Positions 437 through 16,150 of a stretch of 53,851 bases of DNA are shown piece by piece. Each line of letters starts with the position of its first letter. The first letter of the stretch is position 1. The position numbers and the translations under genes were made by a program. The DNA is taken from contig MEYF01000018.1 of assembly GCA_001775755.1 (NCBI GenBank), positions 892 through 54,742 of the forward strand, in the 5' to 3' direction. Source of the stretch: Candidatus Aminicenantes bacterium RBG_19FT_COMBO_65_30. GTDB lineage: Bacteria; Acidobacteriota; Aminicenantia; Aminicenantales; Saccharicenantaceae. Under the pieces are notes generated by a model. That model was not told the origin of the DNA. It was given only the letters and a program-made list of their open reading frames with translations, and ran no database searches.

Positions 437-1876
437 ATGGCGAACCGTAAGAGAAAAATGTTATGGATTGCGGGTGGGGTGATCCTGGCCGTCATCGTCT
501 TGGTCATCTTTACTCTCCTTTTCGGCGCCAACATTATCAAATCCCGGATCGAAGCGACCGCATCGAAGGCCCTGGGGATGGATGTCCGTGGCGGCGGCGG
601 AGGAAAAGTCTCTTATTTCCCGGTCTTCAGCGCTTCGCTCGCGGACGTCACCGTCAAGAACGGTGGCTTTGACGTTGCGACCGTGGCGAACGTGAAGATA
701 GGGCTGAAGCTCCTGCCGCTCATCACGGGCAGGGTCAGGATCAGCCGGATGGAGCTCGTCAAACCCGTCATCTCCATCGTCCGGCAGAAAAACGGAAAGC
801 TCAATATCGAAACGCAGAGAGGCAAGCGGCCGGGAAAGCGCGTGGACTTGAAAAAGCTGGCCGTTTCCCAGGGAAGCCTCCTTTATACCAACCTTCAATC
901 CGGCGGGGAAATCGAATGGGAGGGTTTCGATATCATGGTCGGAAATCTTTCTGCCGGGAGGACGGCGGGCGGGGACCTGCTGAAGACCCTGTCATTCACC
1001 GATGATATCCGGTGCCGCATGATCAGGGTCGGGAACTTCACGCTGACCGACCTCGCCATGAAAGTAGCGGGAGGAGAGGGAGTTTTCGATGTCAACCATG
1101 CCAGCAAGCAACTTCTCGGCGGGACGGGGAGCGGAACCCTCCACGCGGACTTCACGGGGACCGAGCCGCATTTCAGGATCATCCTTGCCGTGAGCCGGCT
1201 CAAGCTCCAGGACCTGCTTCAAGAATCCCCGAACGCGAAGAGCATGGAAGGGCTGGCCGACCTTTCCGCGGATTTGACCGCGAAAGGGAAAACCGCCCTC
1301 GAAGTGAAAAGATCCCTCAGCGGCCAGGTTTCCTTGAACGGCGAGAACATCGTTCTCAACAGCGTGGATATCGACGGCTTGATCTCGGCGATCCAACAAA
1401 GCCGGAGGTTCAACCTCGTGGACGTCGGGGCGTTCTTCCTCGCGGGCCCCTTGGGGCCGGTCCTCAACAGAGGATACCGTTTTGCCGACCTTTACCAGGA
1501 ATCCCGAGGGGGGAAAGGGGTCATCGCCAAGCTCGTTTCGGTCTGGAAAGTCGGAAACGGCGTCGCCGAGGCGGTCGATGTCGCCATGGCCACGAAAGAA
1601 CGCAGGATCGCCATGAAGGGCGGGCTGAATTTCCTCGACAACCGCTTTGAGGACGCCGTCGTGGCGGTCGTCGATCAAGACGGCTGCGCGGTCCTCACCC
1701 AAAAAGTCCGCGGACCGTTCGGCAGTCCGGAGATCGGCACAATCAACATCTTGAGGTCGCTCACGAGTCCTGTGATGAGTTTGGTGAAGAAGGCGTTGAA
1801 ATTGTTCGAAAGCGGGCCATGCGACGTGTTCTACTCGGGTTCCGTCGCGCCGCCGGAGCCTGCCAAGCTGCCGTAG
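437..1876 (+). CDS. AsmA family protein (bridge-like lipid transfer protein)
   Basis: N-terminal TM anchor followed by IKSRIEATASKALG and LKLLPLITGRVRISRMELVKPVISIVRQKNGKLN, typical of the AsmA N-terminus; beta-rich body; GGAGG RBS. Confidence 0.85.
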   Translation: MANRKRKMLWIAGGVILAVIVLVIFTLLFGANIIKSRIEATASKALGMDVRGGGGGKVSYFPVFSASLADVTVKNGGFDVATVANVKIGLKLLPLITGRVRISRMELVKPVISIVRQKNGKLNIETQRGKRPGKRVDLKKLAVSQGSLLYTNLQSGGEIEWEGFDIMVGNLSAGRTAGGDLLKTLSFTDDIRCRMIRVGNFTLTDLAMKVAGGEGVFDVNHASKQLLGGTGSGTLHADFTGTEPHFRIILAVSRLKLQDLLQESPNAKSMEGLADLSADLTAKGKTALEVKRSLSGQVSLNGENIVLNSVDIDGLISAIQQSRRFNLVDVGAFFLAGPLGPVLNRGYRFADLYQESRGGKGVIAKLVSVWKVGNGVAEAVDVAMATKERRIAMKGGLNFLDNRFEDAVVAVVDQDGCAVLTQKVRGPFGSPEIGTINILRSLTSPVMSLVKKALKLFESGPCDVFYSGSVAPPEPAKLP

Positions 1877-6364: not shown

Positions 6365-7291
6365 GTGCCGGCCATGAATAGACGCGTCGCGCTTCATCTC
6401 ATCACCGGCCTGGCCGTTGCCCTCGTCCTCGCGGCCGCCGTCACGCCGGCCGTGCTCGCGGCCTCGCCCCAAGACCCGGCCGGCCCCGGGGAAAAACCGT
6501 CCCACTTCACCCGGCTCTGGGACCTGGACGAGGAGAACCGCCGCGACAGGTTCGCGTTCACTCCCTACCGGTCCAACTATATCCTGGTCTTTTCCACCAA
6601 CAGCTCGCCCAATATCGAAGTCTTCCGGGACGTCGATCCGGGCAGGACGCTCATGAAATCGGAAACCGCGTTCCAGCTGAGCATCAAGGCGAAGCTTTGG
6701 CAGGACGTTCTCGGCCGGAAGATGGACCTGTGGCTCGGCTACACGCAGATGTCTTTCTGGCAGCTCTACAACGTCGCTGAATCCTCCCCCTTCCGGGAAA
6801 CGGACCATGAACCGGAGCTCATTCTCAATATCCGGACCCGTTTTCGCTTCATGGGGCTCGCGGGCCGCTTCGTCCAAATCGGCCTGAACCACCAGTCCAA
6901 CGGCCTGGCCCAGCCCCTGTCGAGGAACTGGAACCGCGTCGTGGCCAGCGTCGGCCTGGAGAGGGGGCCTCTCTCTTTCCTCGTGACCGGCTGGGTCCGC
7001 GTTTTCTACAATCCCGAGGCCAACGAGAACCCCGGGATCTCGAGATACCTCGGCTACGGCCAGGTCCAGGCTTACTATTTCCTCAGGAGGCACAGGTTCG
7101 GGATCAAGCTCCGCGACAACCTGAATTTTCGTTTCAATCGGGCCGCCCTGCAGGCCGATTGGAGCTTTCCGCTGTTCGCGCAGGTCGGCGCGCTCGTCCA
7201 GTGTTATTTCGGGTACGGCGAGAGCCTTCTCGACTTCGACCACCGGGTGAGCCGGATCGGTGTCGGCATCGTCCTGGCCGACTGGTATTGA
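6365..7291 (+). CDS. pldA: Outer membrane phospholipase A (OMPLA)
   Basis: YTQMSFWQ, SSPFRETDHEPE, HQSNG...SRNWNR and GYGESLLD motifs. Confidence 0.92.
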   Translation: MPAMNRRVALHLITGLAVALVLAAAVTPAVLAASPQDPAGPGEKPSHFTRLWDLDEENRRDRFAFTPYRSNYILVFSTNSSPNIEVFRDVDPGRTLMKSETAFQLSIKAKLWQDVLGRKMDLWLGYTQMSFWQLYNVAESSPFRETDHEPELILNIRTRFRFMGLAGRFVQIGLNHQSNGLAQPLSRNWNRVVASVGLERGPLSFLVTGWVRVFYNPEANENPGISRYLGYGQVQAYYFLRRHRFGIKLRDNLNFRFNRAALQADWSFPLFAQVGALVQCYFGYGESLLDFDHRVSRIGVGIVLADWY

Positions 7292-11712: not shown

Positions 11713-12729
11713 CTAACCGTTTCCCTGCGGGTGGCAGGAGTAACAGGCCTGGGAGCTGTAGGAGTATCCGGTGACACCTCGGTGCTCGTTGTCCATGTCC
11801 GTCTGGTCGTGGGCGTGGCATTCGAGGCAGCTGAAGACCCTGTAGTCACTCGTCCGGTGGCATTCGGAGCAAGCGACTGCGTGCCTTCCCGACTGGATGG
11901 GGAACGCGTGGTCGAAATTCGCGCCCGTCCAGCCGGTCGCCGATGTCCCGTGACATTCCGTGCAATCGAGGGGGAAACCGGAAGCGCTGTGGTTGGGGTC
12001 GGTCGTGCCGTTGTAGTCGGCGAGATGGCAGGAGGCGCAGGCCGGGGAAGTCCCCGCGTAGACGCCGTTCTTGTGGCAGTCCGAGCAGGCCGCCGACGCG
12101 TGCGCCCCCTGGAGGACGAAATCCGCGTGGTTGAAGGAGGCGTCCTCCCAGGCCCGCTGGCTGTGGCAGGACGGGCAGCTCGTCGGAAAACCGGCTTCGG
12201 CGTGATTCGGCTCCCGGGTTCCCAGGTAGTCGGATTCGTGGCAGGAATAACAGTCGGTCGGCCGGGGAGCGAAGCCGCCGCTTCCATGACAGGCCTCGCA
12301 GTCGAGAGTCCGGTGGATGCCCTCGAGCCGGAATCCGGCATCCGTCTCGTGGTTCCATTTTGCCGGGTCGACCTTCTTCCAGGATTGAGGCGTGTGGCAG
12401 TCGGCGCAGCGCGTGCCGAGGCGGAGGCCGTACCGGTCGTCCTGGCGGCGCTGCCAGTGGCAGACCTCGCAGTCCGTTGGGGTGCCCTCGAAGACGAGAT
12501 TGAGGTGACACTCCCGGCAACCGAGCGTCCGGTGCTTTCCGACGAGGGGGAAGTTCGTCCGGTCATGGGACTCGACCGTCCCTTCCTGGCCGGCCTTTAC
12601 CGCTTTGGTGCTTCCGCCCGTTTTCTCTTGTCCCGCGCCCCTTTGAGCTCCGAGGACGAGGAAAAAAGGGATGACGAGTGCTCCTGCCAGGGCGATGACC
12701 AGCCCGGCTTTGCTGCGAAGTCGGTTCAT
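11713..12729 (-). CDS. Multiheme c-type cytochrome, 12 CxxCH motifs
   Basis: Counted CRECH, CEVCH, CADCH, CEACH, CYSCH, CPSCH, CSDCH, CASCH, CTECH, CSECH, CLECH, CYSCH; N-terminal signal/anchor; repeated H..F.L.G.H....CxxCH modules. Confidence 0.95.
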   Translation of the reverse strand: MNRLRSKAGLVIALAGALVIPFFLVLGAQRGAGQEKTGGSTKAVKAGQEGTVESHDRTNFPLVGKHRTLGCRECHLNLVFEGTPTDCEVCHWQRRQDDRYGLRLGTRCADCHTPQSWKKVDPAKWNHETDAGFRLEGIHRTLDCEACHGSGGFAPRPTDCYSCHESDYLGTREPNHAEAGFPTSCPSCHSQRAWEDASFNHADFVLQGAHASAACSDCHKNGVYAGTSPACASCHLADYNGTTDPNHSASGFPLDCTECHGTSATGWTGANFDHAFPIQSGRHAVACSECHRTSDYRVFSCLECHAHDQTDMDNEHRGVTGYSYSSQACYSCHPQGNG

Positions 12730-12736
12730 GGCTTCC

Positions 12737-14035
12737 TCAATGGCTCCTGTAGATCATCCTGACGAATAGAAAGTGCTCGTTGAGGCCGGACTGGAGGAAC
12801 CCGCCGTATTCGATGGACGCCGAGAGGCCCCGGCCGAGCCGGATGAGCGTCCCGAGCGATACGTTCCTGTAATTGTCGAGATGGATGAGCTGGGGGTCGC
12901 CGCCGCTCGAGTCGAGGCGCATGCCGTTGAAGGAGTTGGAGTAGCTCCCGTTCAAGGAGAACCGCCCGAAGTCCTTGGTCAGGGAAATGTAATAGGTGTC
13001 GGATTCGGACAGGTCGCCCCGGTTGAGGGCGTAATCCCCGACGGCGGAGATGCCCTGTCCGAGGATGTTCCAGGCGGAGGCGCCGAACCGCCAGGTGTGA
13101 TTGCGGACGCCGAGGTCTTTTTGCTGGCTTTCTTGGCGGCTTACGGACAGGCGCACGGTCCGTGTCGGCTTGAGGCTCAGCCGGACGCCGTAATAGCCCG
13201 TGTAGTAGAACCGCTCGACGTTCTGGTCGTAGATCGTCGGGTCTTGGGAGGCGGCGATGAGGTAACCGTGGAAGTCGAGGCCCCGGCCCGAGCTGTAGCT
13301 GGCGGTCAGGTCGGCCCACCGGCCGAGGTCCAGCCGGATGTTCCCGAAGAGTCGCGACAAACGGTTCGTGCCGTCGACGTGGTTCCCCAGTTCGTATTCC
13401 GCGTTCCCGTAGAAGACGAAGATCTTCCTGACGGGAAGAAAGACGTTGGCGTAGGCGTACTGCCGTTCGACGCTGCCCTCGTACCTCAGGTGGTTGAAGG
13501 TGAGGCCGATCGTCCGGCCTTGCGGGCCGAGCCAGCGGACGAAGGCCCCGGCCTTGAGGTACTTCGTGTCGAGGCGGTTGATGTAAGGCGTGGATTCGAA
13601 CCCTCCGTACGCTCCGGCCATAATGTCCCAGTTGAGCTTGAAGCCGGCTACGCCGCCGAGGAGGGAGCCGATCCCGGCGGTGTCGTAAAGGTTCATTTGG
13701 CCGAGCGCGAGATAAAAGCGCGAGCCGGGCTTATCGTAGGTCAGACGGGCGTTGTAGAGGATGAGCTGGTTCGTCGCGTCGCCGCGGATGCCGATACGGT
13801 CCCGGGCGTCCACGGTCAGGGTCCAACCCTGGCCGGGCCGGTTGATGAGGTCGAACCTGAACCTGGCGGAAACCTGGTTGAAGAACGTCCCGTCGGAATA
13901 GCGCGAACCGTTCCAATCGAGATAGATCGTCCCCTTCTGGTAGAAGGAGGCGCCGGAGGACTGACCGGCCAAGCGCGTCCCGGCGACGAGAAGCGCCGCT
14001 CCCAAGAGGACAATCGCCGGTTTTCGCAGCCGCAT
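12737..14035 (-). CDS. Putative outer-membrane beta-barrel protein between two multiheme cytochromes
   Basis: Signal peptide; no Cys; Gly/Tyr/Phe/Arg-rich alternating strands throughout; C-terminal HFLFVRMIY strand. Confidence 0.7.
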   Translation of the reverse strand: MRLRKPAIVLLGAALLVAGTRLAGQSSGASFYQKGTIYLDWNGSRYSDGTFFNQVSARFRFDLINRPGQGWTLTVDARDRIGIRGDATNQLILYNARLTYDKPGSRFYLALGQMNLYDTAGIGSLLGGVAGFKLNWDIMAGAYGGFESTPYINRLDTKYLKAGAFVRWLGPQGRTIGLTFNHLRYEGSVERQYAYANVFLPVRKIFVFYGNAEYELGNHVDGTNRLSRLFGNIRLDLGRWADLTASYSSGRGLDFHGYLIAASQDPTIYDQNVERFYYTGYYGVRLSLKPTRTVRLSVSRQESQQKDLGVRNHTWRFGASAWNILGQGISAVGDYALNRGDLSESDTYYISLTKDFGRFSLNGSYSNSFNGMRLDSSGGDPQLIHLDNYRNVSLGTLIRLGRGLSASIEYGGFLQSGLNEHFLFVRMIYRSH

Positions 14036-14038
14036 GGT

Positions 14039-14605
14039 TCAGTCCTTTGCCCGCCGGCGATCGACCGTCCAGCTCTCCTGCGTGTGGCAGGCCAAGCAAT
14101 TATCCTGTCGGCCCGGATGCGGGGGATTGTGACAACCCCGGCAGCCCGGAACCTTTAGCAGGTAGGATTTGCCCTGGGTTCTGGGGTAGGTGCTGGCCGG
14201 CGTGTGGCAGGCTTCGCAATCCTTGGTCTTCAGATGGGCGCCCTGGAGGTCGGCCCCGGTTTCGGCATGATCGAAGCTCGCTGGCTCGAGGGGGACTATG
14301 TTCGCCTGACGGCCCTGATGTTCGGCGTGGCAGACGGCGCAGTCGTCGGCCTTGTCGCGGTGATAGCCCTTTTGGGCGGCGACGCGGGAGGCGATCTCGG
14401 CGTGACAGGCGAGGCATTTAGCGGGGGACACCTTGCCCGCGGCCACGTGACACGCTGAGCAGTCGGTCTCACCCGGCTTAGACGCATGGGCTGCGCTCAG
14501 GGGGCCCGGGATTTCCTGGGCGCCCGCCCCCCGGCCCAAAGGGGGAGCCATGGAAGCGGCGACAGCCAGGGCGAAGAGCGGGACGAACAGGCTGGTGATT
14601 TTCAT
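14039..14605 (-). CDS. Multiheme c-type cytochrome, 6 CxxCH motifs
   Basis: CSACH, CLACH, CAVCH, CEACH, CRGCH, CLACH; six additional His as candidate distal ligands; signal peptide; PGPLSAAH start motif. Confidence 0.95.
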   Translation of the reverse strand: MKITSLFVPLFALAVAASMAPPLGRGAGAQEIPGPLSAAHASKPGETDCSACHVAAGKVSPAKCLACHAEIASRVAAQKGYHRDKADDCAVCHAEHQGRQANIVPLEPASFDHAETGADLQGAHLKTKDCEACHTPASTYPRTQGKSYLLKVPGCRGCHNPPHPGRQDNCLACHTQESWTVDRRRAKD

Positions 14606-14651
14606 TCCTATTATTATTATATATCCTATAGAATTAATATGAGGCTGTCAA
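14606..14651 (-). promoter_or_regulatory. Sigma-70 promoter of the cytochrome/barrel operon with AT-rich leader
   Basis: Minus strand TTGACA-N17-TAGGAT followed by ATATAATAATAATAGGA-ATG. Confidence 0.65.
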
Positions 14652-14830
14652 CCGCGGCCCGGCCCTTGTGCCCCGGGCGCGGTGGGAAATTCCTCCCGGG
14701 GTTCACCCTTAGGGGTGATTGACCGGGGCCGGGGGTGAGCCGGATGATAGGGCTGGAATAGGCTGAAGAACTCTTGTCCGGGCGGTTCCGTGTTATAATC
14801 CGCCCGGCGCGCTTTGAAAGGAGCCGGCCC

Positions 14831-16150
14831 ATGGCCAAGATTTTGCTGCTCGATTTCACAGAAGCCGAAAGAGACCATCTCGTCTCCCAGAAATACGACG
14901 TCGAGACCCGGACGACGGGCTGGACGACGGGCGGGGACGAATCCCTCAACCTGCCCGACGATAGCGAGATCGTCTTCTATCAGGTCGGCGGCGGGGCCGC
15001 AGCGGGCCGGGCCGACCTCCACGCCGGAGTCCACGAAATCCTCATGGCGAGGGTGAAGGAAGGCGCCCGGGTCGTCTGCTTCATCGGCGGCGGCGACACG
15101 CGCCAGCTGACGAATATCATCGGGCCCGTCGCCGGACTCCAGATCAAGGACAGCGTCCGGGCCGACGCCGTCGTCTTCAGCCCCCGCGCCCTGTTCCACG
15201 CCCCCTTCGAACGGTTCAAGCCCTTCATCGCCAAGGCCTTCCGGCTCCTCCCCGAGACCTTCGCCGACGGCGTATGGGAGAAAGAGACCGCCACGTCCGG
15301 CAAGTTCGAATTCCTGGCCAAGACGACCGACGGCGCGCCCGTGGCGATGATCCTGAGGAAAGGCAGGGGCCATGTCCTCCTCCTGCCTTCGTTCGGGCCG
15401 AAGAACGTCGAGGTCGTCGACTCCATCCTGAAAGACAAGCTATCGCTCGGCGCCGAGCTCCTCGATGAGCCGGCCGGCGATTGGCTCGACGCCGACGACT
15501 ACGCCTTCCCGGAGCTCAAGGCCCTGGCGGCCAAGCGGGACGAGGAGAAGAAGCGGTTCGACGAGGTCCTGGCCGACTACGACCGCCAGATCAAGGACAT
15601 GAGGGCCGGCGGCCAGGAGGAATTCCACCGCCTGCTCACGGGCGAGGGGGCCGTCCTCAAGAAGGCCATCGTCCATGCGTTCCGCTATCTCGGCTGGGGC
15701 CGGGTGGTGGACGTCGACGAGTATTGGAAGAAAGTCATCCGGAACAAGGAGGAGGACGCCTGGCTCATCGAGCCCGGCGACTCACCCGTCGAGGTCGGCA
15801 TCCGCAAGGGCGAGCTCGTCATCGTCCTCGTCCGGAGCAATAAGAACTGGGCAACCGACGATGAGTGCGCGCTCCTTCAGAAGTACAAAGGCCGGCGGAT
15901 GCAGGAGTTCGACAACACCCGGATGAAGGCCGTCCTCGTCGGCAACTACTTCTCCGCGACCGAGGCCAAGATCCGGGAGAATCCGTTCTCCGCCTCCCAG
16001 ATCGAGGAGGCCCAGAAGGACGGCAACGGCCTGCTCGCGACCTACGAGCTCTTCCGGGCGATCAAGGCCGAGAAGGAAAGCCGCATCTCCAAGGACGCCA
16101 TTCGCGAGCAGATCAAGCTCAAGACCGGCCTGATCACGTTCGAGATCTGA
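14831..16150 (+). CDS. Hypothetical protein with coiled coil and C-terminal restriction endonuclease-like region
   Basis: Host-like codon usage; TGTTATAAT promoter and AAGGAG RBS; C-terminal EEDAWL...LVRS...QKY...KAVLVGN pattern. Confidence 0.7.
   Translation: MAKILLLDFTEAERDHLVSQKYDVETRTTGWTTGGDESLNLPDDSEIVFYQVGGGAAAGRADLHAGVHEILMARVKEGARVVCFIGGGDTRQLTNIIGPVAGLQIKDSVRADAVVFSPRALFHAPFERFKPFIAKAFRLLPETFADGVWEKETATSGKFEFLAKTTDGAPVAMILRKGRGHVLLLPSFGPKNVEVVDSILKDKLSLGAELLDEPAGDWLDADDYAFPELKALAAKRDEEKKRFDEVLADYDRQIKDMRAGGQEEFHRLLTGEGAVLKKAIVHAFRYLGWGRVVDVDEYWKKVIRNKEEDAWLIEPGDSPVEVGIRKGELVIVLVRSNKNWATDDECALLQKYKGRRMQEFDNTRMKAVLVGNYFSATEAKIRENPFSASQIEEAQKDGNGLLATYELFRAIKAEKESRISKDAIREQIKLKTGLITFEI

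Follow-up and report, generated by a model that had tools for sequence, protein, structure and literature searches.

In MtrCAB of Shewanella (PDB 6R2Q), as in MtoAB and PioAB, a heme wire is insulated by an outer-membrane barrel. Porin–cytochrome (Pcc) conduits have been defined by their architecture, that is, by a porin of 18–22 strands and a periplasmic cytochrome with 5–14 hemes, usually joined by a second cytochrome with 1–15 hemes (PMC4245776; for this and the other sources cited by accession, statements refer to the part of the text that was available). Here we analysed a stretch of 53,851 nucleotides, hereafter the window, from Candidatus Aminicenantes bacterium RBG_19FT_COMBO_65_30, an uncultured organism of sediment (phylum Acidobacteriota; assembly GCA_001775755.1, contig MEYF01000018.1, positions 892 to 54,742). 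The window contains an operon of three genes that encode a 6-heme c-type cytochrome, an outer-membrane β-barrel and a 12-heme c-type cytochrome. We conclude that this operon is a predicted Pcc-type conduit, which probably moves electrons across the outer membrane of its anaerobic host by the same principle of an insulated heme wire.

Anoxic sediments, aquifers and peat harbour abundant Aminicenantes (OP8), which are mostly described as fermenters. They have also been called potential iron oxidisers via cyc2, based on FeGenie (PMC7005843, PMC7914226), and dissimilatory iron reduction, not oxidation, has been assigned mostly to metagenome-assembled genomes (MAGs) of Aminicenantia (PMC12740246). 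These labels of some Aminicenantes as iron reducers or oxidisers stem from automatic FeGenie categories alone (PMC12740246, PMC7005843, PMC7914226), and the operon described here is a concrete, compact and conserved candidate for the iron activity that has so far been labelled in this way only. Within the phylum, clusters of multiheme cytochromes and β-barrels are known from Thermoanaerobaculia, including the Fe- and Mn-reducing isolate Thermoanaerobaculum aquaticum (PMC8528874), and four architectures for extracellular electron transfer (EET) have been described from Terriglobia and Verrucomicrobiota of peat (bioRxiv 10.64898/2026.05.27.727921). No description of the present trio in Aminicenantes was found in the available text of these papers; their gene-list supplements may hold one.

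Comparison with described conduits

The Pcc-type reading is based on the fit of the operon to the published, architecture-based definition (PMC4245776). The barrel has about 22 strands in its structural model and thus lies within the range of 18–22. The adjoining gene encodes six hemes, within the range of the periplasmic cytochrome, for which a periplasmic location is presumed here. A second cytochrome with 12 hemes, and without a lipobox, is encoded 7 nucleotides (nt) downstream.

The closest systems are the Pcc operons of Geobacter sulfurreducens (OmbB-OmaB-OmcB and the Ext clusters), in which a small barrel likewise stands beside a small and a second cytochrome. A further likeness is that the porin and the small cytochrome co-vary there, whereas the other cytochrome is highly variable (PMC4245776). 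The present operon differs in its gene order (cytochrome, barrel, cytochrome), in having no lipoprotein cytochrome, and in its second cytochrome, which is a regular polymer of triheme repeats with 9–36 hemes among its relatives. The barrel is likened to the Geobacter porins by architecture and description, not by sequence. The class Aminicenantia of the Acidobacteriota is not among the taxa named in the available part of the Pcc survey (PMC4245776). Other Pcc clusters consist of two genes only, a barrel and a 12–14-heme cytochrome of 338–344 amino acids (aa) that presumably spans the membrane with no partner on the outside. With its 338 aa, the 12-heme protein of the window resembles these cytochromes, but an extra conserved 6-heme gene is present here.

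Compared to MtrB (~650–700 aa), the barrel of 432 aa is short, and its ~22 strands are fewer than those of MtrB, whose structure we take to have 26. A total of 28 strands has been predicted for MtrB (PMC4245776). The earlier note on this DNA had thus rightly called the barrel smaller than MtrB; as a contrast with the Pcc systems of Geobacter this did not hold, since their barrels are small as well. A Pfam model exists for the MtrB/PioB family. The barrel, with ~22 strands in 432 aa and no Pfam-A family at E≤0.01, is not assigned to it. MtrA and MtrC are decaheme proteins and MtrC is a lipoprotein, whereas the cytochromes of the operon have 6 and 12 hemes, and Pfam and NCBIfam scans of the two found no MtrA-type family.

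The Thermoanaerobaculia clusters (PMC8528874) and the systems EET1 and EET2 of the peat Terriglobia share with the operon the phylum and a syntenic arrangement of cytochromes and barrel. The peat systems differ in that they use 8–13-heme cytochromes of the OmcE, MtrA, MtrC or OwcA type and come from orders outside Aminicenantes (bioRxiv 10.64898/2026.05.27.727921). Relative to known conduits, what appears to be new here is an unnamed barrel family, lipoprotein-free cytochromes, a wire of triheme repeats and the lack of a linked inner-membrane module.

Structure of the middle protein

For the 432-aa protein, Pfam and NCBIfam yielded no family at E≤0.01. The AlphaFold2 (AF2) model, which was computed from an alignment of 36 sequences, has a predicted local distance difference test score (pLDDT) of 82 and a predicted template-modelling score (pTM) of 0.69. 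It comprises an N-terminal signal-like helix followed by 23 strand elements (residues 32–431), with residues 253–276 forming a disordered loop. When the elements 382–386 and 389–399 are taken as one bulged strand, the model suggests a barrel of about 22 strands.

Searches with the model point to the same fold. Foldseek returned 340 matches in the PDB at E≤0.001, and the matches listed are outer-membrane barrels. In the VIA structural search, which does not depend on Foldseek, the top match was Cir (Z 19.0, root-mean-square deviation (rmsd) 5.0, 350 residues aligned), next to FyuA (Z 18.9, 364 residues) and BtuB (Z 18.3). We take the barrels of these TonB-dependent transporters to have 22 strands and those of the Occ porins to have 18. 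The Occ porins reach similar Z scores, but with only ~270 residues aligned, and MtrB (6r2q_B; Z 14.5, rmsd 7.5, 346 residues) ranks below the 22-strand barrels. Where the earlier note had left room for a soluble or non-barrel protein, AF2, Foldseek and VIA all give a transmembrane β-barrel. In the structural alignments to TonB-dependent transporters, which cover 350–364 of ~400 residues, no part of the 432-aa protein corresponds to a plug domain. A 22-strand barrel without a plug would need something else to fill it.

Relatives of the barrel were found both among 8000 candidates scored (278 at E≤0.001) and among 1.84 billion cluster representatives (88 at E≤0.001). Nearly all relatives of the barrel stem from MAGs whose titles name Candidatus Aminicenantes, Aminicenantia or Acidobacteriota. 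None of the 120 relatives listed out of the 278 has a precomputed Pfam domain. The ESM Atlas held unnamed clusters only, the nearest ones with a Pfam family (BBP2_2, score 0.92) being at chance level. One relative, P0133, seemed to be a cytochrome–barrel fusion of 1007 aa; we took it as an artefact, as part of it reads like frame-shifted sequence.

Conservation of the trio across related loci

To survey synteny, we used 65 loci with a barrel related to that of the window, mostly from Aminicenantes MAGs. A multiheme frame on the same strand ends just before the barrel in 55 of them. This upstream frame has 6 hemes in 41 loci, 23 in five and 24 in four; in the remaining five, some of which are frameshifted or cut, the number ranges from 3 to 14. 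Among the ten loci without an upstream multiheme gene, three have no flank, two have a flank of ~800 nt and five have a full flank. Downstream of the barrel, 60 of the 65 loci have a multiheme frame on the same strand, and four of the five that lack one have less than 300 nt of flank. Of the 54 downstream frames that do not run into a contig end, 51 have a heme number divisible by three, in a series (number of loci in brackets) of 9 (3), 12 (13), 15 (8), 18 (7), 21 (10), 24 (7), 27 (1) and 36 (2) hemes; the exceptions are found in L018 (17 hemes), L021 (4) and L059 (26). With tblastn, relatives of the 6-heme protein were detected in 61 loci and relatives of the 12-heme protein in 62. Altogether, the barrel is linked to multiheme cytochromes in 64/65 loci.

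The other neighbours of the operon in the window are kept far less often, namely an esterase-like gene in two loci, a DUF5916 gene in 13 and a divergently oriented gene in 15. When all open reading frames (ORFs) of the 65 loci were clustered all against all, no other family occurred in more than 15 loci, antisense shadow ORFs aside. Since the cytochromes are kept beside the barrel and the neighbours are not, the trio is the unit of inheritance. A lack of joint conservation, which the earlier note had named as the second finding that would speak against its proposal, was thus not observed.

Two further gene pairs recur beside the trio in some of the loci. In 10–12 loci, a molybdopterin oxidoreductase with a twin-arginine translocation (TAT) signal (MoCoBD_1/2, 711 aa) and a 2Fe-2S subunit (Fer2_2) adjoin the trio on the same strand, either upstream (L022, L023, L024, L026, L064, L034, L036) or downstream (L046, L051, L061; cut copies in L025 and L045). 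This pair could be a periplasmic electron donor. The genome of the window has just a 33%-identical molybdopterin/2Fe-2S pair, which lies elsewhere, on C134. The second pair, found in 9–11 loci that are all deep-branching, consists of a membrane-anchored protein with 4Fe-4S and flavin adenine dinucleotide (FAD) domains (Pyr_redox_3) and a polytopic, histidine-rich membrane protein with 15 His and no Pfam match. It lies downstream on the minus strand in L042, L043, L047, L052 and L053 and on the plus strand within the cluster in L054, L055, L058, L059 and L060; it is also present in L065. This pair goes with those deep-branching versions of the operon that have 23–24-heme upstream cytochromes and is a candidate inner-membrane input module. 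No relative of it was found with tblastn in the genome of the window.

The two cytochromes

The 188-aa protein contains 6 CxxCH motifs, 12 Cys and 12 His, and the 338-aa protein contains 12 CxxCH motifs, 24 Cys and 24 His. From these counts it follows that every Cys sits in a heme motif and that both proteins contain exactly as many extra His as hemes, which is the number required for bis-His ligation.

The start of the 6-heme protein resembles a Sec signal ending in AGA|QE. In the alignment of 30 orthologues (A2), all six CxxCH motifs are invariant, as are H40, H82, H96, H113, H124 and H163. The protein scores above the curated Pfam cut-offs of Cytochrome_C7 (29.2 bits, cut-off 24.8) and Paired_CXXCH_1 (28.5 bits, cut-off 20.6) and below that of the model for MtrC/MtrF domain II/IV (26.6 bits, cut-off 30). 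Compared with solved structures, the profile gave weak matches to domain II of MtrC and MtrF (E 5e-4 to 7e-3) and a marginal one to 3oue (E 0.0067). A phmmer search against PDB sequences returned only matches of the Nup358 zinc-finger type, which we judged spurious. A complex prediction of the barrel (residues 25–432, alignment A1) with the 6-heme protein (residues 30–188, A2) scored 0.00 twice and, run without controls, is uninformative either way.

The 12-heme protein is built of four units of ~72 aa with three hemes apiece. Within a unit, the CxxCH motifs are spaced by 16 and then 21–25 residues, and in the last unit by 14 and then 28. It belongs to the cytochrome c7/c3 superfamily according to both its triheme repeat and the Pfam cut-offs (Cytochrome_C7 52.8 bits, cut-off 24.8; Cytochrom_CIII 48.7, cut-off 22.9; Cytochrom_c3_2 44.1, cut-off 25). 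In alignment A3, 11 of the 12 CxxCH motifs are invariant, and for most close orthologues the His of the CLECH motif at 301 is aligned out of register. The protein resembles the dodecaheme GSU1996 (PDB 3OV0, 3OUE) in its four triheme units and its match to Cytochrome_C7, but sequence similarity to GSU1996 is marginal (3ov0, E 0.018 with profile A3). The match of the same profile to a 16-heme chain of the Hmc type is also marginal (E 0.007), and phmmer found nothing among PDB sequences at E≤0.01.

At its N-terminus, the 12-heme protein has a hydrophobic segment of ~21 residues followed by a low-complexity linker. At the start of the proteins with 3n hemes in general, basic residues are followed by a hydrophobic segment of 18–22 residues, then by a short linker and a conserved motif W..SHD.TNFPL.GKHR. 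This N-terminus may be either a cleaved signal or an anchor.

The 6-heme protein has relatives within much larger cytochromes. Over its full length, it aligns with the N-terminal part of a 23-heme protein (42% identity, E 2e-39), and the 23–24-heme upstream proteins of the deep-branching loci begin with the 6-heme module. We also found a sister family of barrels with 23–27% identity to the barrel of the window (P0155, E 8e-18), in sources named Thermoanaerobaculia or Acidobacteria and in 12 of the 401 genomes sampled from the phylum. Seven of eight fetched sister loci have cytochromes of 10–60 CxxCH motifs within ~2.3 kb on the same strand, among them giant cytochromes with 51 and 60 motifs (Table 1). 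The 6-heme module is found again at the start of the 51-heme protein (35% identity, E 5e-33), whose neighbouring barrel is 24% identical to that of the window (E 5e-11). The sister family may correspond to the barrels of the published Thermoanaerobaculia and peat clusters.

Distribution and genome background

The barrel family was detected in 53 of the 300 genomes sampled from the class, including 26 of the 166 high-quality ones. Within the family of the host it was found in 23/86 genomes and within the genus in 15 of the 40 other genomes, whereas none of 26 genomes of genus g3 has it. Given this patchy distribution, the operon is accessory and has been repeatedly gained or lost. One genome of the same genus (G672) has two full-length copies of the barrel, which are 78% and 74% identical to that of the window, and another genome (G147) has a fragmented copy with a TGA stop (Table 1). 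A locus from a MAG titled Aminicenantales (L066) keeps the flanks of the operon, that is, the 458-aa protein, TPR, ferredoxin and M50 peptidase, with only a partial barrel match and without the cytochrome genes. L066 and G147 look like stages of operon loss.

The assembly that holds the window (2.45 Mb in 136 contigs, 85.7% complete; the window lies on our contig C18) has only five ORFs with at least two CxxCH motifs, and two of these are the cytochromes of the operon. Another is a 7-heme protein of 780 aa with a C-terminal membrane segment on C11, which is present in 80/86 genomes of the family. An 8-heme protein on C136 has a lipobox-like LGSC and a match to MtrC/MtrF domain II/IV (32.5 bits) and is present in 40/40 other genomes of the genus. 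We considered both as partners linked to the operon and rejected them, as neither tracks the barrel (23/86) and their neighbours are unrelated. Two secretins are also encoded in the genome.

Probable function of the operon

The fold of the barrel, the conservation of the trio and the fit to the Pcc architecture support the analogous porin–cytochrome conduit that the earlier note had suggested, with a function that is predicted. In such a conduit, one of the cytochromes would fill the lumen of the barrel, and its heme chain would link the periplasm with the cell surface. Our preferred candidate for the protein inside the barrel is the 6-heme cytochrome, because it accompanies the barrel constantly, because it is also the N-terminal module of giant cytochromes in the sister systems, and because its mature size of ~160 residues is near that of a transporter plug. 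In an opposite layout, it may be the 12-heme protein that enters the barrel, by analogy to the cytochromes of 338–344 aa in two-gene Pcc clusters. The triheme-repeat cytochrome with its 9–36 hemes would lengthen the chain, either outward or across the periplasm from an N-terminal anchor. The locations of the 6-heme protein in the periplasm and of the 12-heme protein outside the cell are putative, and neither protein has a lipoprotein signal.

The net flow of electrons is probably outward, with humics, a partner cell or minerals of Fe(III) or Mn(IV) as the acceptor. Neither COX1 nor cytochrome bd was detected in the genome, which is 85.7% complete, and this apparent lack of oxidases favours the outward direction. 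As to electron input, the operon would have to work without a linked quinol dehydrogenase: as noted before, none is present among the Pfam-annotated ORFs at positions 437–26163 of the window. In some relatives, the molybdo-oxidoreductase or the iron–sulfur flavoprotein with its membrane protein beside the trio might serve this purpose.

Several observations weigh against a conduit of this kind. Pfam shows no homology of the barrel to those Pcc or Mtr porins that have been characterised. In Mtr and Pcc, the cytochromes at the surface are lipoproteins, and no credible lipobox was found in any multiheme ORF of the 65 related loci, where the sole match falls within an ORF start that is extended too far. 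For the 6-heme protein, the AF2 model (30 sequences) is too poor to be of use (pLDDT 55, pTM 0.30). An NrfD-type protein was not found in this genome or in five relatives, and the sole NapC/NirT-like match in the genome is weak and falls on the C4 cytochrome (at least four hemes) at the contig start. Furthermore, as an accessory trait the operon is not needed for the core lifestyle of these bacteria. Lastly, this genome, at 85.7% completeness, yielded no cytochrome c assembly gene (PF01578). As PF01578 is present in 5/5 operon-bearing close relatives, the gene most likely belongs to the 14% of the genome that is missing.

The lack of lipoprotein signals in the cytochromes of the related loci would also fit a different reading, in which there is no conduit, the cytochromes are periplasmic carriers or stores, and the barrel is a solute channel or a pore for export or anchoring. 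The long N-terminal hydrophobic segment of the 3n-heme protein could then anchor it in the inner membrane, and the molybdopterin oxidoreductase that flanks the trio in 10–12/65 loci would need a periplasmic cytochrome as its partner. We consider this rather unlikely. A plug-less barrel of 22 strands would be too wide for an open solute channel, and the linkage to cytochromes in 64/65 loci and again in a sister family at 24% identity is hard to explain without a physical partnership. In addition, at a chain length of ~1 nm per heme, the 36–60-heme cytochromes of the relatives would be longer than the width of any periplasm.

A second alternative accepts the conduit and reverses its direction. 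Porin–cytochrome modules are reversible in principle, and the same hardware could run inward for electron uptake or Fe(II) oxidation, as in MtoAB and PioAB, and feed reductases or hydrogenases in the periplasm or membrane. Some homologous clusters do serve Fe(II) oxidation (PMC4245776, PMC7005843), and the FeGenie-based papers label Aminicenantes as potential iron oxidisers through cyc2 (PMC7005843, PMC7914226). The genome also encodes three large subunits of the complex-I/[NiFe]-hydrogenase type, and HypF is encoded 5 kb from the operon. However, no heme-copper or cytochrome bd oxidase that could act as a sink was found in this genome at 85.7% completeness, the locus shows no sign of autotrophy, and Aminicenantia MAGs have been assigned iron reduction, not oxidation (PMC12740246). 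An inward flow is thus unlikely.

It is very improbable that the operon is decaying or mis-assembled and gives no useful product here: the missing PF01578 gene of this genome and the signs of loss in G147 (stop codon, fragments) and L066 (flanks, partial barrel) would fit decay, but the three frames are intact, the heme ligands are all conserved, an independent database entry matches the barrel at 98% identity, DNA contigs of three studies match the window at high identity, though the best holder may be its source sample, and the operon-bearing close relatives do have PF01578.

The predicted outward Pcc-type conduit can be extended to a wider reading, which is tentative and, taken as a whole, doubtful: the trio may be the minimal core of lipoprotein-free conduits throughout the Acidobacteriota that combine a hexaheme plug, a triheme wire and a feed by periplasmic enzymes. 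In these conduits, the hexaheme module of ~160 residues would plug an otherwise empty 22-strand barrel, and the triheme polymer would act as a wire of adjustable length, with 9–36 hemes here and up to 60 in the sister systems. The Aminicenantes conduit would be fed directly by periplasmic enzymes and not by the quinone pool. If all of this were true, fermenters could unload electrons onto minerals, humics or partner cells. 

Apart from this wider reading, the 3n-heme series from 9 to 36 is a natural experiment on the length of heme wire that is required. Given its patchy distribution (23/86 in the family, 15/40 in the genus), the operon could also mark populations that respire metals or humics or take part in interspecies electron transfer.

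Traces in public sequencing runs

The window or part of it was detected in 20 public runs from 11 studies with soil or sediment metagenome labels. All but one of these runs are DNA. DNA contigs of three studies (P1, P3, P6) match at ≥99%. The one RNA run is a library from sediment, in which seven contigs that are 90–95% alike to the window cover parts of all three genes. One of its contigs (record 18) bridges the junction of the barrel and the 12-heme gene with 62 and 561 letters on its two sides, and another (record 21) bridges the junction of the 6-heme gene and the barrel with 101 and 41 letters. These contigs hint weakly at transcription in a close relative, in a library where carry-over of DNA is possible, and they are no proof of a single transcript. 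Some bins of the operon have no contig cover in this library, which is evidence for nothing.

Layout of the locus

The coordinates of the operon and of the other features are collected in Table 1. The earlier note had described three tightly packed, co-oriented genes under one promoter that encode a hexaheme protein, a Cys-free protein of 432 aa and a dodecaheme protein, and this description is right in all details checked. The ORF coordinates agree with the packing on the minus strand, and the motif and Cys counts agree with the composition. The whole operon spans 2.9 kb. A single promoter-like site, identified as a consensus match only, stands directly before the first ATG and is followed by an AT-rich leader with AGGA; a scan of the region gave three promoter-like sites where 0.5 were expected. 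The terminator scan detected no terminator-like sites in the short gaps between the three genes; both of its matches lie inside the barrel gene, one of the two on the minus strand. From the translations, all three proteins begin with a basic stretch that is followed by a hydrophobic stretch.

Table 1. Coordinates of the operon, its neighbours and related features in other contigs and loci
Feature	Location	Strand	Basis or remark
Promoter-like site TTGACA-17 nt-TAGGAT	14623..14651	−	10/12 consensus match, 18 nt 5' of first ATG
Gene 1, 6-heme c-type cytochrome, 188 aa	14039..14605	−	ORF and CxxCH count
Gap between genes 1 and 2	14036–14038		3 nt
Gene 2, Cys-free outer-membrane β-barrel, 432 aa	12737..14035	−	ORF and AF2 model
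Gap between genes 2 and 3	12730–12736		7 nt
Gene 3, 12-heme c-type cytochrome, 338 aa	11713..12729	−	ORF and CxxCH count
458-aa protein	14774–16150	+	Divergent from operon
Phospholipase A1 (PLA1)	6365–7291	+	282.6 bits
AsmA-family protein	437–1876	+	
7-heme protein, 780 aa	C11:5018–7360		Same genome
8-heme protein	C136:5868–7220		Same genome
Barrel copies in G672	C10:12717–14006; C12:90913–92193		Full length
Barrel copy in G147	C6:17186–17877		Fragmented, TGA stop
Molybdopterin pair	L022:2610–5308		Example, upstream of trio
4Fe-4S/FAD pair	L042:3923–6102	−	Example, downstream of trio
60-CxxCH cytochrome	L082:2169–6938		Near sister barrel
51-CxxCH cytochrome	L083:951–4709		Near sister barrel

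Among the ORFs at positions 437–26163, Pfam annotated hydrolases, AsmA, PLA1, DUF5916, TPR, a 2x[4Fe-4S] ferredoxin, M50 peptidase, HypF, QueH, peroxiredoxin and a TPP enzyme, or gave no match. The divergent 458-aa protein has no Pfam or NCBIfam match, and the loci in which its gene is kept at its position are those of close relatives only. The outer-membrane phospholipase A1 and the AsmA-family protein encoded nearby fit with a diderm envelope.

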